From: a virus
Taxonomy: Duplodnaviria > Heunggongvirae > Uroviricota > Caudoviricetes
DNA: 64,000 bases
IMG/VR virus record: IMGVR_UViG_3300048599_000194
Span: 64,001-128,000 of that record
Reading direction: 5' to 3' (one strand)
Below are positions 5,572-20,211 of this stretch, one piece after another. The translations under genes and the position numbers were made by a program. How positions within the stretch are numbered: position 1 is the first letter of the stretch; each line of letters begins with the position of its first letter. The notes beneath the pieces were generated by a model. That model was not told the origin of the DNA and searched no databases. It was given only the letters and a program-made list of their open reading frames with translations.

Positions 5572-6669
5572 TTAGCCGCTAATACTGGCGCGAATTTCTT
5601 CAATCACCTCAATGACCATCTCAGGATCATCATATGGATTGGCTTCTAAAAATACTCTCGTCATAGAAATCATGTTTTCACTATGTATAGCTACACTCAT
5701 ATCTTCAAAAATTTTCACTTCCTCAGGGGACTTATCTGAATTTACATCATCGATACTGTCAACCACCTTCTGATATGCGCGATATGAAATTGGCTTTTTA
5801 GATAACACTTCTTTTTCAATGACAAATAATTCATCTTCTTTAATTCCTTCCTTGTATTCAAATTCAACAAAATAATTCTCTAGTGATTCCATATTTGATA
5901 ATTCATCTCTGTTATTGAACTTAAAAAATCTACTAGACGACTTATTTTCTACGAATATTCTTTCATTAGTGTGAAGATCTATGATATGAAATCCCTTGGC
6001 CTCACTGGCGTCAGCGAATGTCAACTGAAATGGGGTTCCTACATAGTGTATGGTATGTCCATTTATTTCTTTATAGCTCTGTGTATGAAAATGTCCTGAT
6101 ATGGTATGTTTGAAATTCTTGTATAGTATTTCTGGGTTCATTCCTTCAGTGCAAATTGAACCAGCTTCAAATGGAAAACCAACTGTTTCGAAATGTCCGA
6201 AAACATATTGAAACCTGCCCTTTACTTTATCTGCATTATCTTCAAAGGTTTGCATCATTGCAGTAGTAAGCCAAGGTACGAGTAGGCATTTAACTCCAAA
6301 CAATTCAATCGGGCGAATAGAAGTAACTGCAGTGACATTTGGTTTCGACCATATGTTAGATAATGAAGTTACACTTAGATCATCTTTGTAATAAGTGTCA
6401 TGGTTCCCCTGGAGCACAATACATTTGAAATCTTTAAGGTCGTTCTGAAATAAACCCTCAACGTACTGTGCTATTTTCGAATCGATTCTACGGCGCTGGT
6501 CATATAGATCTCCGGTAAATAAAATAGTGTCTATCTCGCGAGAAATTAATTCTGGAATCAAACACTCAGTAAAAAATTTTCTCTGAGATTCGAAAAGTGT
6601 TTCGAATTTTAGAGAATTATTTGGAGAAACACCAAGATGGAAATCGCCTACTACTGCTATCTTGCTCAT
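5572..6669 (-). CDS. gp47: Recombination endonuclease, Mre11/SbcD-like subunit
   Basis: GDFHLG, GDLYD, GNHDTYYK, FGHFE, SGHFH, YVGTPFQLTFAD. Confidence 0.95.
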   Translation of the reverse strand: MSKIAVVGDFHLGVSPNNSLKFETLFESQRKFFTECLIPELISREIDTILFTGDLYDQRRRIDSKIAQYVEGLFQNDLKDFKCIVLQGNHDTYYKDDLSVTSLSNIWSKPNVTAVTSIRPIELFGVKCLLVPWLTTAMMQTFEDNADKVKGRFQYVFGHFETVGFPFEAGSICTEGMNPEILYKNFKHTISGHFHTQSYKEINGHTIHYVGTPFQLTFADASEAKGFHIIDLHTNERIFVENKSSSRFFKFNNRDELSNMESLENYFVEFEYKEGIKEDELFVIEKEVLSKKPISYRAYQKVVDSIDDVNSDKSPEEVKIFEDMSVAIHSENMISMTRVFLEANPYDDPEMVIEVIEEIRASISG

Positions 6670-7341: not shown

Positions 7342-8271
7342 TTAGAATAGATTACCACCCCAGTCAAGTCGATCTACATTCAATTGAGTATATCTATCTT
7401 CTCCGTCGTGGTTATCGTCGTCAAAAGAATCTTGATTATATTTCATTTTTTCTTCAAAGCTCTGACTATTATCTGAAATTGCTTTTTCTTCTTTAATCAC
7501 AGCAATGAATGCGTTATATGCATATTTTGTTAGATAATTAAATGGATTCCTCTTAACCTGATCTTCAAAATCCTTTAATAATGTATCTGGCCATTGATTG
7601 AATATTTCGTCTCTAAATGTGGCTTCATTGAATACTGGCTCAGTAAAAGTCATACCCTTAGCATTATCCGCCATTAACTCAATAAGAACTTCTGGATCGT
7701 TTAGCTTATAGAAATCGTGTTCAAAAATCTTTCTACCCATTTTAGTTTTTTCTTTTCCATTTGGAGTCTTAATTCTAACCTCCAACAGACTTAAATAAAA
7801 CTTATCATATGAAATACCACGCTTTGACATCCAGTCTTGAAGAACATATGTCTTTTTTCTAAACAACCAACGAATAAGAAATTCAAGAGTTTTTACGTAG
7901 TTAATGTTATATCCGTGCGCATATCTACAGATATGTTCATGCGCTCTTGATTTCATATCCTCATGCCATCCATTATAGTATGAACGGAACTGAGCACCTT
8001 TACTATACTCTTCAACAATTTGAATTATATTAAGTCCTAACTTTCGTCCAATACCATGTTCAGGATTTATGCTATGCATTATGACATATTCGCGTAAATT
8101 CTCTTCGAGTACTTCTGGATCGATATAATATTTTGGGGTAGAATCTTTCTTTGCTTTTTTCGGCTTATTTCGGGCCTCTATCTTTTTCTGTAAATTTTCT
8201 TCGAACTCTAAATGTTCAGTTAGATCAGACGACCACTCGTTAATATCTTGTTCTTCTATAGACATATTCAT
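7342..8271 (-). CDS. gp55: Late-transcription sigma factor (gp55-like) with large insertion
   Basis: YYIDPEVL, IG..LGL.I..I, FRSY...W.EDM...A.EHI.RY, NPFNYLTKYAYNAFIAVIKEEK match gp55 conserved blocks. Confidence 0.8.
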   Translation of the reverse strand: MNMSIEEQDINEWSSDLTEHLEFEENLQKKIEARNKPKKAKKDSTPKYYIDPEVLEENLREYVIMHSINPEHGIGRKLGLNIIQIVEEYSKGAQFRSYYNGWHEDMKSRAHEHICRYAHGYNINYVKTLEFLIRWLFRKKTYVLQDWMSKRGISYDKFYLSLLEVRIKTPNGKEKTKMGRKIFEHDFYKLNDPEVLIELMADNAKGMTFTEPVFNEATFRDEIFNQWPDTLLKDFEDQVKRNPFNYLTKYAYNAFIAVIKEEKAISDNSQSFEEKMKYNQDSFDDDNHDGEDRYTQLNVDRLDWGGNLF

Positions 8272-11933: not shown

Positions 11934-12253
11934 TAACTAATCCTCAGCGTCTGTCTATATCCAGTGTCATCATCAAATTCAACTAGAATATAAACGTCGT
12001 TAAATGATATATAATCCCTAACCTGCAAATTCCTATCCCCAAAAAATGGAAGCAATTTCGACCTGATCGCACATGCTGTCGATTTATCTATGAATTCACC
12101 TGCAAAAGAATTAAGAATCTCAACCGCCTTTAAGGTTGATATTGATGCATCTTTTCCCGCAATATCATATACCCATCGAGGAACCTCATAATATGACCTC
12201 CAATGTGGATCTACAACATACTGCCAATCTGGTATCTCTGAAACCCCAAACAT
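11933..12253 (-). CDS. Hypothetical protein
   Basis: 106-aa ORF with stop/start overlaps on both sides. Confidence 0.7.
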   Translation of the reverse strand: MFGVSEIPDWQYVVDPHWRSYYEVPRWVYDIAGKDASISTLKAVEILNSFAGEFIDKSTACAIRSKLLPFFGDRNLQVRDYISFNDVYILVEFDDDTGYRQTLRIS

Positions 12254-13623
12254 TAGCTAACCTTGTACTTAGTGTCATATTCAATGGCATCAACGATCTT
12301 ATGTTCAAAATCGGCTTCGAATACTTCATATTGGAGAATAGCTCTCCCATTAATAATTGGTACGAACTCTTGTCTGAATTGTTGTAGACCAGCTTCCTCA
12401 TAATATACTATTCCAACACCCTGTTGCCAATTCTGATATGCCTTTGCACCTGGAACTGCGCCAGGGTCTATCTTACAAAGACATCCAAATGAAGCCGCAG
12501 TGTATAGATATGCAGTATCGTCTGCACCCCATAGAGTCTTAGTTGCAACTTCATATCGATGAATATGACCCTGAATTACAGAAACTCTAGTATCCTTAAC
12601 TACTGCGGATACAGTTGCTCCTGATTCACTCTTTGCAATTTCACCGTGAATGCATACCAAATTATCATTCAAAACCACTTTTCCATTTGGATAGTTTGGA
12701 TGATACTTAATCTTTAGATTATCAAGCCCCAATAATTTTGGTATTGAGAGTAGTGGAGGCCCATTTAGATCATCTACCGACTTAAGTCCATATGCAGAAA
12801 TCGCGTTCTGCATAAGTGCCTTTTCGGCCCTGATATCATGATTCCCTGCAATGTAATCAATTTCCATATTTGGGTCAATTGCTCTGAATTGAGCAAGCCA
12901 CCATGCTAATTCAACCGCCGCCGCCTGAGTGGTGAAATAAAATTCAGGTCCGGTTGGGTATTTTGACTCTTGGGGTAAATCTAAATTATCTCCAAGTAAA
13001 ACAATTCTATCAGGTCTGATATATTTTGCAATTTGAAGAGCTACATCCATTGCACTTCTGTCGTGTATTGATGATAGTTTCCCATTAACCATATTTCTAC
13101 GAAATCCGACTTGCATATCTGGAAGAACTAATGCAGTCTTAATTGACTTATTCTTCTTCGATGTGCTTCCTTGTATCTTAGATGAGTCAATTCTAATATC
13201 AATTGAGGCAGGTATTTCATAATTAGCTATCAACTTAATTCTTCTAAATGAAACCTTAATTTGATGAAGTCGAATAAGACCCTGATCATTTGGCCTCATT
13301 CCGTCCCATTCATTATGGGTCACATTTGACACTTCCCATATTTTACGATCAACATCTAATTCTGACAATAGCTCATCTAGAGTCTTCTTTCCGCCAGAAT
13401 ACTTAACCGTCAATTCTTTCTGATTTTTGTCATCTAGTATTTCTTCAACTATTGAGAAACTTGGTGACTTAGTTTGGGTTGAAATTGCGGAGTCTGATGA
13501 TTCAGTAATATAATCAATCAGAATATTTGCAACCTGAGTTCTTGTAATTCCGAGTTCCTCGGATATGTAGTTGACTGTTTTTCCGGCTTTTGCAAGCTCA
13601 ACTACCTTCAGATTTTCTTTCAT
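12253..13623 (-). CDS. Calcineurin-like metallophosphoesterase with N-terminal HTH
   Basis: N-terminal GKTVNYISEELGITRTQV (HTH); PDMQ, LGDNLD, GNHD, IHG, GHIH motifs; SD AAAGGAG. Confidence 0.85.
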   Translation of the reverse strand: MKENLKVVELAKAGKTVNYISEELGITRTQVANILIDYITESSDSAISTQTKSPSFSIVEEILDDKNQKELTVKYSGGKKTLDELLSELDVDRKIWEVSNVTHNEWDGMRPNDQGLIRLHQIKVSFRRIKLIANYEIPASIDIRIDSSKIQGSTSKKNKSIKTALVLPDMQVGFRRNMVNGKLSSIHDRSAMDVALQIAKYIRPDRIVLLGDNLDLPQESKYPTGPEFYFTTQAAAVELAWWLAQFRAIDPNMEIDYIAGNHDIRAEKALMQNAISAYGLKSVDDLNGPPLLSIPKLLGLDNLKIKYHPNYPNGKVVLNDNLVCIHGEIAKSESGATVSAVVKDTRVSVIQGHIHRYEVATKTLWGADDTAYLYTAASFGCLCKIDPGAVPGAKAYQNWQQGVGIVYYEEAGLQQFRQEFVPIINGRAILQYEVFEADFEHKIVDAIEYDTKYKVS

Positions 13624-13641
13624 GTGTACTCCTTTAATGAT

Positions 13642-13685
13642 ATTTTAGCAGATTTGTATAGTATGTAGAAAAAATGTGCTAAGAT
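13642..13685. promoter_or_regulatory. Divergent extended -10 promoters
   Basis: TGCTAAAAT on minus (13642-13650) toward the phosphoesterase gene; TGCTAAGAT on plus (13677-13685) toward the GC-rich non-coding element. Confidence 0.5.
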
Positions 13686-13689
13686 GTGG

Positions 13690-13995
13690 AGTAGATGAAA
13701 GTCTGAGTTGCACGGAGTCAAGGGATGCCAAAGCTGATGAAGCTGGCCGTGTGACGCTACGAAGATCGTTGCAGTGTGCGAAGAAAAGCCCTGGGAACGC
13801 TAGTGTGCCGGATGTAAGGGAAGAGACAAGCCTCAGAGTCAAATCCATTCGGTAAATCTTCGAGGGGGAACATTACACAAGTTGAGTTCAGTTCTTGTGT
13901 AAATGGGCGAAAGTACTTCTATCCTACCACCAAAACTCAAAATGGTGGACTCATGGGGTAGGGGGAACTGGGCGAGGAGCGTCTGCGCGAGACTA
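13690..13995 (+). ncRNA. Putative structured non-coding RNA (~300 nt), GC-enriched
   Basis: About 50% GC (149/300 counted over 13681-13980) in an AT-rich genome, no credible ORF, several helices with G-U pairs on the + strand and a 7-bp loop-loop complementarity. Confidence 0.6.
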
Positions 13996-13998
13996 TAG

Positions 13999-14030
13999 AT
14001 TAGCTCATTAGCTCATTAGCTCATTAGCTC
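13999..14030 (+). repeat. Perfect tandem repeat (ATTAGCTC)x4, iteron-like
   Basis: Copies start at 13999, 14007, 14015 and 14023. Confidence 0.95.
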
Positions 14031-14050
14031 ACAGCTTTCAAACAAATGGG

Positions 14051-14150
14051 AAATCTCAAAAAAGAAATAGCTTCTTAAAAATGAGAAATCTCACAAATCT
14101 CACAAAGAAAAGAAATTCTAGATTGAGAAGACTCACTCAGACAATCTAGA
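14051..14150 (+). repeat. AAATCTCA direct repeats and an inverted repeat in an A-rich tract
   Basis: AAATCTCA at 14051, 14086, 14095; TCTAGATTG (14117-14125) / CAATCTAGA (14142-14150). Confidence 0.8.
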
Positions 14151-14191
14151 TTCTATCATCATTATGCTTAATTTAGCGTTAAAATAGACAT

Positions 14192-14782
14192 ATGACAGAG
14201 GAAAAGAAAAATAAAACTCGCCAGCCTAAGGAACCAAAATCTCTAGAGCCAAGAGTCCAAATTACCTATAATGATCTACGAAAAGGAATAGCTGAAGAAG
14301 TCAATAGCAAATTCAACACTCCAGTAATAGAAGCATTTTCTAAAAATGAAGAAGATACTATTACTTCATTAATGGATGAATTCAAGGAAGATACTACAGT
14401 CCCTACTGACTTAGATTTACTATATAATTACAATGCAAGCATAAACACTACCATTAGTAAATGGGTGAAAAGATATGTTAGATATTCTAGCGGATTAGCG
14501 AAAAATGAAAAGAAACTCATTGTCTTAGACGCTATTATCACTGAAGAATATAAAAGAAATCCAGATGCACATAATGGAATTTTATTAACCGATAAGGAAA
14601 TAAGAAATATCATTTTGATAAACCAAGATCATATTGAGCTAGAAGAAAAGATAAATAGTATAAAGGCGGTAATCTACGTGATTGAAATGGCTATATCTAG
14701 ATTAAAAGATATGACATATATAATTAAAAATGCAAATGAAACTCTAAAAATAAAGAATTATCTAATAAATGGTAATTTTTAA
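14192..14782 (+). CDS. uvsY: Recombination mediator UvsY
   Basis: Helical pattern L.DE.KED...SKW.KRY...KEIR.I....D..EL...I..AI..LK...Y.IKNA aligns with T4 UvsY; adjacent to uvsW. Confidence 0.7.
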   Translation: MTEEKKNKTRQPKEPKSLEPRVQITYNDLRKGIAEEVNSKFNTPVIEAFSKNEEDTITSLMDEFKEDTTVPTDLDLLYNYNASINTTISKWVKRYVRYSSGLAKNEKKLIVLDAIITEEYKRNPDAHNGILLTDKEIRNIILINQDHIELEEKINSIKAVIYVIEMAISRLKDMTYIIKNANETLKIKNYLINGNF

Positions 14783-16451
14783 GAAACACAATAATTCACA
14801 TGCTAAAGTAATCTGGCAACCAACTCCAGAAGATCCATATAAGCAAAGCCCTTATGTTACTTTAGATAATCTATATGCTATTAGACCTGAAGGATTTATG
14901 TTTGATCCTAGATTTAAGGCTAATAGGAAAAAGAGATTTTCGAAATATGATGGGAAAGTTAGACTATACAAAATCTTACCAAGTCTCATTCCTTTAGGGT
15001 TGGTTAGAGAAGCTGTTAGAACATTGAGACAGTTTGGGTGGAATGTTGAAGTAGATAATTCGATTATCTCATCATTTACAGACCCTACTGATTATTCAGA
15101 ATTAATAACTTCATTTTGTAATGCTATTGCTAAATCATGTGGATTAACTCCTAGAGATTATCAGCAGAAAATACTAGAACTATCACTTAAATTAAAGAGA
15201 GCCGCTTTTAGAGCCGCTACTGGAGCAGGTAAGAGTCTTGCGATGTATATGATTGTTAGATTCTTCAGAAAAGTCATTGATCCAGATATGAATTTCCTCA
15301 TATTGGTTCCAAATATCAATTTAGTTAATCAGCTATATAGAAATTTCAGAGATGATTATGGGTGGGCTGATATTGATCAATACGTTGGAATGTATCACTC
15401 TGATTTCACAGCAAATGAAAAGAAAATTGCCATTAGGAAACCAATTCTCATTAGTACTTGGCAGTCTATGGGGTCTTTATTAGAAAATCCAAAATTCGAG
15501 GATTATTTTAAGAGGTTTTCTTGTCTATTAGTAGATGAATTACATACTGCAAAGAATGATCAAGCCGTCATTAATAAAGTTGTATCTGCATGTTCGAATG
15601 CGGAATATAGATTCGGATTAACTGGTACCATACCAAGACATATACTAAACCAAAAAGTTCTAATTGGTAATTTTGCTGATATTCATCAAATCATCTCATC
15701 TAAGGAATTGATAGAGCGAGGTGAACTATCAAAGGCTTCAATTATTGAAGTTCAAATACCATATGATAATTACACTATTGAATTATGTAGGAAAAAGAAA
15801 ATACCATTAAACGCAGAATACGAGCTATCTCGACTAACTCGATCTCATGAGTATGCCGTTCATTCGCTAATAAGAGATGGAATAATCACCAAAGATCAGA
15901 ACACTCTGATTCTTATGAAGTATGTAGAAAATAAAGAAGTTGAAAATATGGTGGAGATGCTAAAAAAGCATCACCCAGAATTTAAGATTAGATTTGCTCA
16001 TGGTAAGGTTGCCGTAAAGACAAGAGATGCGATTTTAGCTGAACTAGAATCTGAATCTGGGATGATTGTGGTTGCTACATACGCTACATTCGGGACTGGA
16101 TTTAATATGAAAAATTTACATAATGTAATATTCTCATCGGACTGTAAATCGTACACTAAAATACTACAATCAATCGGCAGAAGTCTAAGATTGCATAAGT
16201 CTAAATTAATGGCGAGAATATTTGACCTGCATCACATGATAGAGGAAAAATATTTTTCGAACAGAGCTAAGAAAGACATGGAATTTAGATCTAATCTATC
16301 TAACCATTTTTATCAACGAGAGGAGTTTTACTATGAAGAAGAATATCCACAAGAAATACACATAATAGATAGAGAATTTAGCTTCAATGGATTAACTTTA
16401 GATGGTGTTGACATTTCTTACATGAATTCAGAAACCTCAGAGGAAGATTAA
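14769..16451 (+). CDS. uvsW: SF2 helicase UvsW
   Basis: YDGKVRLY, PRDYQ, ATGAGKSL, ISTWQS, DELH, GLTGT, GTGFN..NLHNVIF, LQSIGRSLR. Confidence 0.95.
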   Translation: MVIFKKHNNSHAKVIWQPTPEDPYKQSPYVTLDNLYAIRPEGFMFDPRFKANRKKRFSKYDGKVRLYKILPSLIPLGLVREAVRTLRQFGWNVEVDNSIISSFTDPTDYSELITSFCNAIAKSCGLTPRDYQQKILELSLKLKRAAFRAATGAGKSLAMYMIVRFFRKVIDPDMNFLILVPNINLVNQLYRNFRDDYGWADIDQYVGMYHSDFTANEKKIAIRKPILISTWQSMGSLLENPKFEDYFKRFSCLLVDELHTAKNDQAVINKVVSACSNAEYRFGLTGTIPRHILNQKVLIGNFADIHQIISSKELIERGELSKASIIEVQIPYDNYTIELCRKKKIPLNAEYELSRLTRSHEYAVHSLIRDGIITKDQNTLILMKYVENKEVENMVEMLKKHHPEFKIRFAHGKVAVKTRDAILAELESESGMIVVATYATFGTGFNMKNLHNVIFSSDCKSYTKILQSIGRSLRLHKSKLMARIFDLHHMIEEKYFSNRAKKDMEFRSNLSNHFYQREEFYYEEEYPQEIHIIDREFSFNGLTLDGVDISYMNSETSEED

Positions 16452-16459
16452 ATATAGAT

Positions 16460-17728
16460 ATGTTACAGGTAAAGCCTTCAGATTCTGATATTGCTTCAAT
16501 AAAAACTGAGTACTCTGGCATGTATGTTGAGTATCCATTGTTACAACCCCTTCCAATTCCAGTTAATGTGTATGTAACTCAACAGCAATTCATTTTCTGG
16601 AATGATGTCAGCCCATACCTCCCATACGGGTCAAAACTCATAAAGGCATATGTGAGGCCGGATGACTATGCGCTTGAAGGACTTAACAAATTAAAGGAAC
16701 TGAATCCTTCATTTGATTTTGATGGAATTGTAGTTAAGAGGGCTGGAATTTCTGGAATTCCTTCAGATGATACTACTTCTGGTTCAGACTTCTTCAAGTC
16801 TTCGACTGCATCACAAACATCGAGCGATACTACTTCAGACGTAAATAAAACTTATCCTAATCTAAATGGTAAGTTCGATTCATACTATCTTCACCAGTTT
16901 GATTATGATAGTGTCAAATCTGCGCTTAGTATTGTTGGCTATATTTGGGAGTTACCATTTTCTGATAGTTACCAAAAAGGATTAACTATGGCGATTGACT
17001 TAACTGATGTTTCAATCGACCATTCCTTAATTGTTTCAGTAATAAACAACATTATACAAAACAATGACTACCTGAATGCTTCAAACTGTGTATTATCAGG
17101 AACAAGCGCAATTGTCACGTTCGTAAGTAGTGAAATTTCTGTTACTGCATATGAATTTGGAATTATTAATGTTGGACCTAATAGCAATGTATCTGATTGT
17201 TTTTCAGAAAAGACACTGAATAGAATATATGCTAATCTTAAAACTAATGGATATGGCGATCTAGATGAATCTGTAAAACCTGAACTATTAAAGGGTTTAC
17301 CCCATAACACTAGGAAAAAAGGCACTGCACTAGCAAAGGCTATTAGAGATTCAATGATAGAGGTTTTAGGCGGCTCAGAGGGGGTTATTAGCGTCCTTCA
17401 GGCTTCAACTAACGAATACCTAATGGCATTAATAAATGGCCTCCTAGCGGCTAATAATGTACTCTATGATGAATTAGATCGAGTAGGTGGTGGTAATGTC
17501 AAAAAGAAAGCACAGGACGCATTCGAAAGTGGGATGAATAAGAGTATAGTATCTAAAAATGTTTCATCCCTATTGAATAACGGATTAGAAATTAATAAGA
17601 CTACAGGAAAGTCATTAATTGCTGTTGAGAGTAGTGAAGTTGTTTCTGCTAATGCAAACAGTATTCAAATTGAAATGGATTTATCTAGGTCAATTGAAGT
17701 TGTAGCAGGATCTCAAGCTAAGTCATAA
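16460..17728 (+). CDS. Hypothetical (probably virion) protein
   Basis: 422-aa ORF; late motif TAAATA 5 nt upstream. Confidence 0.7.
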   Translation: MLQVKPSDSDIASIKTEYSGMYVEYPLLQPLPIPVNVYVTQQQFIFWNDVSPYLPYGSKLIKAYVRPDDYALEGLNKLKELNPSFDFDGIVVKRAGISGIPSDDTTSGSDFFKSSTASQTSSDTTSDVNKTYPNLNGKFDSYYLHQFDYDSVKSALSIVGYIWELPFSDSYQKGLTMAIDLTDVSIDHSLIVSVINNIIQNNDYLNASNCVLSGTSAIVTFVSSEISVTAYEFGIINVGPNSNVSDCFSEKTLNRIYANLKTNGYGDLDESVKPELLKGLPHNTRKKGTALAKAIRDSMIEVLGGSEGVISVLQASTNEYLMALINGLLAANNVLYDELDRVGGGNVKKKAQDAFESGMNKSIVSKNVSSLLNNGLEINKTTGKSLIAVESSEVVSANANSIQIEMDLSRSIEVVAGSQAKS

Positions 17729-18981: not shown

Positions 18982-20211
18982 ATGTACATGTTCCAATCAG
19001 AGTTCAGTGAATTAAAAAATTCACTAGATAAAACCGTCACCAGAAATCCAATTTTGACAAAAGAACAAGAGCACTTTGTGTTTTCTTGTATTTCTTGTGC
19101 AAAAAATAGGATATTTGGTTTGGCGTTGCAGGATGCAGATGCATATTCAACATTCGCATCTGAGGTTGCTCAGATTGTTTCAAAAGGAGATGCACATGAA
19201 ATCTTCATGACTCAGAAATTTGAAGGAGAATCAGAATATGATTCAAACTTCAATAAAACTATGCAGTTTGTTGATCGTATCGCCAATTGTAATTGCGATG
19301 ATGTGATAAAATCCATTCGCAGTTACAACATATCATATGACATTTTTTCTACATGTCTTTCTGTTTTTTTAGAAAAGCATTCAAACAATAAAGTTATCGA
19401 TATTCTTCTAAGTGATATGAATTACTACATTGAAAAAATATACCTATCTAATGTGAAGATAGTACTGAGAATACTTTCTGCGTATAGAAATACAGATGGA
19501 ATGACCGTTAAAGATTTATTCTCTGAAGGAATGATAGGGTTACGGCGTGCAATTGAACTATATAATTGCGACCTAGGTATTAAATTTAGTACATATGCAT
19601 CACAATGGATAAAGGCTTCAATTAATAGGGCAATTGCAGATAAGGAATCACTGATTAGAATTCCTGTAAATGTCCGTGAGCAGAGTAGAGAGGTAGAGCG
19701 AATTCGTAAAGAATTAAAATCACAATTAGGATACGAGCCTAGTGATGAAGAAATTATTGAGAAGATGAAGAAAAAGGTATCATCTCTAGCAAATATCGAC
19801 ATATCGTTTAATTACTATCAGATTGATTTAACTCCTAAAGAACAGTCTGAGCTTGGTAATTCTACAGTCACCGCCTCTTTCGAGGAAAACTTAGTCGATG
19901 TCAATATTATGGAAGAAACTGATTCAGTTACCATTAAAGATGTGCGACATGTCATTAGAGACTATATAGAGTCCGTCAATAGTGCAAAGGAAAAGTTCTA
20001 TCTCCAGTTCCACTTCGGATTAAATGAATCTAACGATATCAAGAGCAAAGAAGAAATTATGACTGAACTCAATATACTACCTAATGAATATGATAGAATT
20101 AGAAAAAGGGCAATATCTAACATTAAAAAGGCTTTATGTAGGAACAAGGTTGCATTAGATGCGTATGGACTTGCATCTGGATGGGATTCACATTCTAATT
20201 TGGAGTTTTAA
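18982..20211 (+). CDS. RpoD/sigma70-family RNA polymerase sigma factor
   Basis: Region 1.2 PILTKEQE; region 2 DLFSEGMIGLRRAIELY..LGIKFSTYASQWIKASINRAIADKESLIRIPVN; region 3 LGYEPSDEEI; region 4 HFGL...KSKEEI. Confidence 0.92.
   Translation: MYMFQSEFSELKNSLDKTVTRNPILTKEQEHFVFSCISCAKNRIFGLALQDADAYSTFASEVAQIVSKGDAHEIFMTQKFEGESEYDSNFNKTMQFVDRIANCNCDDVIKSIRSYNISYDIFSTCLSVFLEKHSNNKVIDILLSDMNYYIEKIYLSNVKIVLRILSAYRNTDGMTVKDLFSEGMIGLRRAIELYNCDLGIKFSTYASQWIKASINRAIADKESLIRIPVNVREQSREVERIRKELKSQLGYEPSDEEIIEKMKKKVSSLANIDISFNYYQIDLTPKEQSELGNSTVTASFEENLVDVNIMEETDSVTIKDVRHVIRDYIESVNSAKEKFYLQFHFGLNESNDIKSKEEIMTELNILPNEYDRIRKRAISNIKKALCRNKVALDAYGLASGWDSHSNLEF

Follow-up and report, generated by a model that had tools for sequence, protein, structure and literature searches.

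An uncatalogued, structured RNA upstream of uvsY in a small clade of giant T4-superfamily phages

We analysed a 64,000-nt stretch of DNA (hereafter, the window), taken from a 306,252-bp IMG/VR virus record that has direct terminal repeats (IMGVR_UViG_3300048599_000194, Caudoviricetes; bases 64001-128000), and describe here an RNA locus harboured by a 568-bp gap between two divergent operons. As the initial annotation of this DNA had pointed out, gene orientation flips at the gap: the − strand genes end at position 13623 and the + strand genes, headed by a uvsY-like recombination mediator gene, begin at 14192. The comparison of homologous loci lends good support to the existence of a real, uncatalogued RNA family encoded in this gap and limited to a small clade of giant T4-superfamily phages. 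As to its mode of action, we tentatively favour the view that positions 13692-13985 of the + strand specify an uncatalogued RNA of ~295 nt, likely with an extended −10 promoter of its own, which would act as a discrete folded RNA, probably with a protein, and not as an R-loop primer. The initial annotation had proposed an undescribed, structured + strand RNA of ~300 nt with its own promoter, functioning as an origin-associated primer. The first part of that proposal is supported by covariation and by the lack of an Rfam match, whereas none of the tests that we ran supports the second.

Homologues were collected using word, pattern and protein-guided scans, and candidate stretches were checked by nhmmer or with a covariance model. 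The element was found in four IMG/VR contigs (L002, L016, L035 and L061), one metagenome contig (L071) and one contig of a metagenome-assembled genome (MAG; L084). L016, L035 and L084 are identical over the RNA, so that five distinct sequences are available, and in all homologues the RNA is flanked by the same two genes, one for a phosphoesterase and uvsY. Beyond the four known contigs, word and pattern scans of IMG/VR returned chance matches only: homologous stretches made up one of nine and three of 46 candidates, and a further scan gave four of nine, all four from the known contigs. The metagenome scan produced three stretches, two of them homologous and one new, and the genome-contig scan 11 stretches with a single homologous one, whose RNA is identical to that of L016. 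Protein-guided scans led back to the same contigs and to nothing further. The clade appears to be small, because the UvsY protein has only 12 relatives at E-values up to 0.001 in a collection of 5.8 billion proteins; roughly ten relatives besides those described here have been seen as proteins only. A covariance model built from the five sequences (R1; 324 model positions, 6 branch points) matches once in the 306-kb genome. When R1 was run against 151 genomes sampled from the phylum to which the MAG containing L084 is assigned, only that MAG was hit, and nothing was found in the other 150. L084 itself is contig JBAZEQ010000020.1 (16.6 kb) in a MAG labelled Ignavibacteria, on which a close relative of our phage is represented by its phosphoesterase gene, RNA, uvsY and uvsW. 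It is probably a mis-binned phage fragment and at most a weak hint of the host.

Covariation among the homologous uvsY-upstream regions, which the initial annotation had suggested as a test of the RNA, is strong across the five distinct homologues. Standard pairs occupy 96.3% of 464 cells, compared to 35.8-43.3% when the 3′ partners are slid by one to three columns, although this measure is inflated, because the tested structure was derived from the same five sequences. Changes on both sides affect 26 pairs, versus 2-6 when partners are slid. On four of five measures, none of 500 column shuffles reached the observed value; on the fifth (further pair types), 20 of 500 did. Contigs of two DNA runs that took no part in the derivation of the fold also fit it. 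They display compensatory changes (13714G>A with 13748C>T and 13768G>A with 13798C>T) as well as single-side changes that keep or improve pairs (13710G>A, 13696U>C, 13925U>C and 13926A>G); one more change, 13766U>C, cannot be judged, since the aligned piece ends 6 nt away from its partner. Mean pairwise identity amounts to 0.78 in the RNA core, 0.78 in the promoter region, 0.46 in the spacer leading to uvsY, 0.64 in uvsY and 0.62 in the phosphoesterase gene. By this comparison, the RNA is more conserved than the genes flanking it, and its 13-helix fold is maintained on the + strand by compensatory substitutions.

The fold, obtained with RNAalifold from the five homologues and combined with pair counts, comprises the following elements:

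13692-13985, + strand: structured RNA core, 294 nt, 13 helices, 93 pairs
13692-13697/13980-13985, + strand: closing helix P1, 6 pairs
13707-13755, + strand: helix 13707-13715/13747-13755, around a conserved module that carries a GANGA pentaloop hairpin; all nine pairs retained in every one of the five sequences
13757-13864, + strand: long-range helix 13757-13766/13856-13864, enclosing the hairpins 13767-13799 (variable) and 13806-13814/13846-13854
13871-13905, + strand: hairpin 13871-13883/13892-13905 with the invariant loop motif GAGUU; 13 pairs, 7 of them changed on both sides
13912-13969, + strand: composite hairpin, with an outer helix 13912-13926/13954-13969 (holding a G-tract at 13955-13965) and an inner helix 13927-13932/13943-13948

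The helices that had been listed from the single sequence (13707-13715/13747-13755, 13806-13814/13846-13854, 13871-13881/13894-13905 and 13927-13932/13943-13948) all recur in this consensus at the same positions, as does the outer stem TTCTATCCTA/TAGGGGGAA. P1 includes one double-sided change (A-U to G-C in L061) and one A·C mismatch, in L002. Helices 6 and 8 are both 100% paired, the latter with two pairs changed on both sides. Helix 7, i.e. the variable hairpin at 13767-13799, differs in length and sequence between homologues; seven of its pairs have changed on both sides and it is paired in four of the five sequences. In the composite hairpin, helices 12 and 13 are paired at 97% and 100%, respectively, three U-G pairs are invariant, and the loop consists of 10 conserved nucleotides containing AACUCA. 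Junctions and loops throughout the RNA are mostly invariant and purine-rich. Two candidate pseudoknots are not established: pairing of 13704-13709 (UGAGUU) with loop positions 13934-13939 is kept in all five sequences through wobble only, with no double change, and pairing of 13703-13708 with 13832-13837, judged by inspection of the alignment, covaries in L061 and is mismatched in L016 and L071.

Two further observations concern segments of the RNA. The 9-mer AGGGGGAAC occurs in it twice, at 13863-13871, where it is predicted to be unpaired, and at 13960-13968, as a helix strand; both copies are nearly invariant among the homologues. Separately, RNA-library contigs in two runs (contigs of 366 and 658 nt, the latter at depth 24) match the apical module at 13714/15-13747 (33-34 nt) and no other part of the RNA, with three differences; in them the module is flanked by a different self-complementary stem. 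These contigs may represent a distant RNA relative or a reused module. A 16-mer from their flank, when searched in IMG/VR, gave five stretches, none of them matching R1.

The RNA coincides with the ORF-free island of ~50% GC that was recognized at the outset: GC content is 0.49-0.51 at 13700-13999 compared to ~0.31-0.41 in the flanks, and, among 300-nt windows of the genome, the core ranks at the 95th percentile in GC (0.50) and the 99th in G (0.313). The preference for the + strand, previously argued from G-U pairs, is upheld by invariant G-U/U-G pairs and by the fold energy, −90.2 kcal/mol on the + strand versus −65.4 on the − strand. The possibility that the stretch is coding was considered and rejected. 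There is no conserved ORF, and the homologues disagree in the strand, frame and length of their open frames; the RNA stretch contains four single-base, frame-breaking indels, and its variable columns are distributed 34/31/39 over the three codon phases, that is, with no codon periodicity. The stretch 13692-13985 is non-coding.

The ends of the RNA may be considered in the light of the following signals around it:

13677-13685, + strand: extended −10 element TGCTAAGAT of the RNA gene, conserved in five of five homologues; L061 reads TGCTAACAT
13642-13669, − strand: promoter-like site from a consensus scan, TCTACA-16 nt-TAAAAT with TG before the second hexamer
13658-13672, no strand assigned: conserved block TAGTATGTAGAAAAA in the divergent promoter region, identical in three of five; L061 is three bases off and L071 one
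14180-14185, + strand: −10-like TAAAAT six bases ahead of the uvsY start codon, conserved in five of five homologues

The extended −10 element is present where the initial annotation had placed it. The word TGCTA[AC][AG]AT is found at 20 sites of the genome, several of which are 6-7 nt ahead of a start codon, and the homologues carry an equivalent TGCTA[AC]AAT for the − strand promoter-like site. Judging from the spacing, the transcription start would fall ~7 nt downstream of the −10 element, at ~13692, where P1 begins. The functional unit presumably ends at 13985, with the 3′ strand of P1, because identity drops from 0.78 to 0.46 directly after this strand. No terminator-like site follows the RNA, and a consensus scan detected no terminators in 13400-14400. 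Since a terminator is lacking, a longer transcript would have to be processed to yield the 3′ end.

The same arrangement could also be that of a leader that acts in cis for the + strand operon (uvsY, uvsW and the genes beyond), working on the transcribing polymerase or on the fate of the mRNA, for example by processive antitermination of the put/EAR kind or as a processing or stability signal. The RNA lies directly behind a promoter and is sense to the downstream genes with no terminator in between, and an RNA-library contig spans from 13810, inside the RNA, to 14131 in the spacer, which is compatible with read-through but does not prove it. Antitermination RNAs such as HK022 put and EAR are likewise promoter-proximal, sense to a multi-gene operon and without an expression platform. 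Nevertheless, we consider a leader function unlikely, if still a serious contender. The RNA is separated from uvsY by a poorly conserved spacer of ~200 nt (46% identity), and there would be no terminators to overcome in 13400-14400. With 295 nt and 13 helices it is several-fold larger than antitermination RNAs are known to be, and it differs from put and EAR further in that no downstream terminators are seen and no Rfam match exists. Moreover, the RNA does not seem to be needed as a leader of uvsY, because a conserved −10-like element belonging to this gene lies 6 nt ahead of its ATG. We see no Shine-Dalgarno sequence in front of uvsY, and its mRNA is possibly leaderless. The genome contains 21 similar cases of TA[AC]AAT located 4-9 nt ahead of the start codon (ATG) of ORFs of 80 aa or longer, 12 of the 21 at a spacing of 6, a number for which the chance expectation was not computed; several of these hexamers directly follow terminator-like hairpins. 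This pattern suggests that leaderless mRNAs are frequent in the phage.

We compared the locus with catalogued RNA families. At gathering thresholds, the 64-kb window has no match among the 4227 families of Rfam 15. With E-values of up to 10 allowed, there were seven matches in 13550-14300 and four in 13686-13998, all to small unrelated models scoring 11-21 bits, far below their cut-offs of 38-114. By this search, the RNA matches no Rfam family, including GEBRO and ARRPOF, to which the initial annotation had referred, provided that these, GOLLD, ROOL and other known RNA families are part of Rfam 15, as we assume. Full-text literature searches turned up no RNA of such kind described upstream of uvsY. 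In its size, helix count and invariant purine-rich junctions the RNA is reminiscent of the large orphan RNAs (GOLLD, ROOL, raiA, HEARO/omega RNA, GEBRO and ARRPOF), with which it also shares the setting of a GC-rich island in an AT-rich genome, the location in a phage and a function not evident from sequence. Unlike them, it gives no covariance-model match to the Rfam collection and is represented by five distinct sequences from one clade; furthermore, it is fixed between the phosphoesterase gene and uvsY and not located beside tRNA arrays or a nuclease or transposase gene.

One could still imagine a strongly diverged member of a known catalytic or ribonucleoprotein (RNP) RNA family. RNase P RNA was tested specifically because of the tRNA load of the phage: with 42 tRNAs and a tmRNA encoded in its genome, such a phage could plausibly use an RNA of this type. 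The size and branching of the modelled RNA are similar, and there seems to be some motif-level resemblance. Three tests gave no indication of a relationship. Apart from the absence of anything but small unrelated models in the Rfam search, the RNase P model RF00010 has no match in the genome at E-values of up to 10, while being positive in 11 of 14 control genomes. Conversely, R1 applied to Escherichia coli rnpB stays at noise level (best score 0.2 bits). The Smith-Waterman score with rnpB is 23, compared to an average of 24 for 300 shuffles, 58% of which do equally well, and global alignment is not above shuffles either. No long-range pairing equivalent to P4 could be placed; inspection of the alignment showed no segment upstream of 13980 with a complementarity retained by all homologues, and the only conserved candidates pair 13704-13709 with a hairpin loop. 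By these model searches and alignments, RNase P RNA is largely refuted, and membership in any known family of this sort seems to us highly improbable. In addition, the genome has no reverse transcriptase (PF00078), which argues against an RNA of the retron or diversity-generating retroelement type.

Downstream of P1, the spacer has a character of its own:

13999-14031, no strand assigned: tandem repeat ATTAGCTC, 4.1 copies, detected by TRF; not in the homologues, which have other short repeats there
14037-14166, no strand assigned: A-rich tract with AAATCTCA copies at 14051, 14086 and 14095 and palindrome arms at 14101-14125/14142-14166; least conserved part

The repeats, the A-rich tract and the palindrome had been noticed initially and are indeed there: besides the 4.1 copies of the first repeat there are 2.3 copies of AAATCTCAC at 14086-14106, the tract has 52% A in 14040-14125, and the palindrome is present, if imperfect. 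In four of the five homologues, the spacer has more repeated 7-mers than expected (each time matched by 0 of 500 shuffles); L002 shows no enrichment (p 0.84). The repeat motifs themselves differ among homologues (ATTAGCTC, ACAGACTC, AGACTAT and AGAGACT). Common to the repeats of the relatives (L016, L061, L071 and partly L002) is an AGACT/AGTCT core, which occurs both directly and inverted, ~8 times in L061. A fast-evolving array of protein-binding sites, iterons or operators, is possible in the spacer.

It was this juxtaposition of a structured transcript and repeats that led to the idea of a structured pre-primer RNA of a replication origin. The folded transcript would enter the repeat/A-rich spacer, form a persistent RNA-DNA hybrid with the help of its G-rich segments and be cut to prime the leading strand, the hybrid later being removed by UvsW. 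Several properties of the locus accord with this idea: the RNA strand is rich in G (99th percentile of the genome, as given above), the spacer is AT/A-rich (71% AT in 14040-14139, the 96th percentile) and enriched in repeated 7-mers in four of five homologues, a promoter-like element precedes the RNA while no terminator follows it, and the genome provides a T4-type replisome context (family-B DNA polymerase, SbcC/SbcD-like proteins, UvsY and UvsW). Against it, selection on the fold ends at P1, and the presumed origin DNA (repeats, A-tract and palindrome) is the least conserved part of the locus, with 46% versus 78% identity; the repeat sequences differ between homologues, and the spacer of L002 shows no enrichment. 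The G-tract GGGGTAGGGGG is present at 13955-13965, but its assignment as an anchor stabilizing an R-loop did not hold up, the tract being one strand of a conserved helix. Because it forms the 3′ strand of helix 12, which is 97% paired, the GGGGUAGGGGG tract is unlikely to serve as a free anchor. The genome-wide GC skew, proposed earlier as a check, speaks against the idea as well, since there is no genome-wide turn at the locus: the cumulative curve descends nearly steadily from 0 to −12.8 along the 306 kb, and near genome position 78 kb there is only a local wobble linked to gene strand, one of several.

The position of the locus invites comparison with the replication origins of phage T4. 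Kreuzer and Brister (2010; PMC3016281) describe T4 oriF, or ori(uvsY), and oriG as requiring ~100 bp, with an A+T-rich unwinding element directly next to a middle promoter, and state that the origin R-loop is independent of specific sequence. According to the same review, oriE relies on an early promoter and has direct repeats of 12 nt; like oriF and oriG, it is situated near a point of transcriptional divergence, and UvsW unwinds origin R-loops (PMC3016281). Our locus is similar to oriF in its position beside uvsY/uvsW at a point of divergent transcription, with a UvsW-like helicase encoded alongside, and similar to T4 origins in general in having a host-type −10 promoter that would fire into AT-rich DNA; oriE likewise pairs an early promoter with short direct repeats. 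Unlike in oriF and oriG, which call for no particular RNA sequence or fold, 295 nt of conserved, folded, GC-rich RNA intervene here between promoter and AT-rich DNA, so that the layout departs from that of minimal oriF: the 294 nt after the promoter have 50% GC and are folded, and the AT-rich tract begins ~350 nt downstream. Also unlike those T4 origins, the repeats are not conserved among relatives, and our locus is not known to act as an origin.

A second precedent would be RNA II of plasmid ColE1. The two have in common a long folded transcript with G-rich segments, the lack of a terminator before AT/A-rich DNA and a selected fold. They differ in that no antisense promoter was found here (a consensus scan detected no − strand promoter-like site inside 13692-13985 that could drive an RNA I-like regulator), the G-tract is paired and conservation ends before the presumed priming site. 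Moreover, the element is that of a phage, not of a plasmid, and the two are related neither in sequence nor through Rfam. If the RNA were nonetheless a folded pre-primer marking an R-loop origin at the position of uvsY, the RNA II principle of plasmids would have its first counterpart in a phage, in which case the conserved fold would control the release of G-rich segments locking the transcript onto the downstream repeat/A-rich DNA, and the neighbouring UvsW helicase would switch the origin off. We give this scenario little credence. The primer function as such is neither shown nor refuted; on the sequence evidence assembled here the balance leans against it, and we deem it improbable.

We therefore return to the tentatively favoured alternative, a discrete folded RNA. 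It is suggested by the closed fold, which includes the predicted first base of the transcript, by the invariant junctions, by the peripheral hairpin that is free to vary and by conservation that ends at P1. In such an RNA, the invariant purine-rich junctions and loops might form tertiary contacts or protein-binding sites, and the RNA would be made early, together with the replication/recombination genes on both sides. A number of points weigh against this interpretation. The five distinct sequences come from one narrow clade; in addition to the inflated count of paired cells mentioned above, the single sequence folds no better than its shuffles (z −0.40; 32 of 100 shuffles fold equally well). 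The significance of the fold comes from the homologue comparison only. Conserved synteny is uninformative as to a partner, because the five sequences belong to one clade and the genomes are collinear over the whole region. No gene for an RNA-binding partner was identified, with Ro60, L7Ae and RnpA not searched for. The transcript, its ends and its stability are predicted only, and the missing terminator fits a leader or a primer equally well as a processed RNA. In three wastewater metatranscriptome runs, contigs cover the RNA and both flanking genes at a similar low depth, but strand information is lost in these contigs and they may be DNA carry-over; they neither show nor refute transcription. 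The bin 13610-13680 was uncovered in all four runs examined and is not counted as evidence.

The genes next to the RNA are the following:

12253-13623, − strand: HTH-metallophosphoesterase gene, 456 aa, with an N-terminal helix-turn-helix (HTH); first gene of the − strand replication/recombination operon
14192-14782, + strand: uvsY-like recombination mediator gene; PF11056 at 22.9 bits (cut-off 22.8), phrog_231 at 4.6e-8
14769-16451, + strand: UvsW-like helicase gene with ResIII, DEAD and Helicase_C matches

The HTH-metallophosphoesterase has weak matches, below the cut-offs, to Pfam HTH_28 and Metallophos_2 and belongs with phrog_20266 of PHROGs (6e-51); no NCBIfam match and no meaningful PDB sequence match were found. 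Its AlphaFold model, computed from a four-sequence alignment, has a mean predicted local distance difference test (pLDDT) score of 41.5. It is not the SbcD partner, because there is a separate SbcD-like gene at 5572-6669; the protein beside the RNA is thus a second phosphoesterase, the regular SbcD-like gene corresponding to phrog_100 (7e-61). Farther along the − strand operon are genes for an SbcC-like protein, a late-sigma-like protein, the SbcD-like protein and a family-B DNA polymerase. On the other side, the UvsW_N score of the helicase is 24.8 bits, slightly below the cut-off of 25.3, and the protein is ~31% identical to cyanophage gene products annotated as ‘RNA-DNA + DNA-DNA helicase’. 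A sigma-70-family gene is located beyond it on the + strand, so that two sigma-factor-like genes flank the locus, one late-sigma-like (7342-8271, phrog_234) and one of the sigma-70 family (18982-20211, phrog_351).

Among 50,697 phage records there were no nucleotide matches either for 13640-14195 or for 12000-17000. Together with the low identity of the helicase, this indicates that the phage is, by sequence, a distant, uncultured member of the T4 superfamily. Its whole genome encodes 42 tRNAs and one tmRNA (tag peptide AEESYSYALAA), none of them inside the window; the tRNA/tmRNA genes span G000:C1 165507-296896, nearly all of them clustered on the − strand at 281-297 kb. A block of ~20 kb at G000:C1 ~160-182 kb stands out by its GC content of 44-53% compared to 38.9% for the genome; it may have been acquired recently or form a gene module of its own.

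Large RNAs that combine an intricate fold with strong covariation are rare, and those that are understood so far are ribozymes, guides or RNP scaffolds. The RNA described here resides in the replication/recombination module of an uncultured 306-kb phage that has its own set of tRNAs, a tmRNA and sigma factors. The new RNA family comes with a predicted 5′ end, a closing helix and a model, R1, which may be used to annotate related phage contigs. The T4 pathway of replication and recombination is understood purely in terms of proteins and unstructured transcripts. If the RNA acts with the replication/recombination machinery, or if it primes replication, it would add an RNA component to this pathway.

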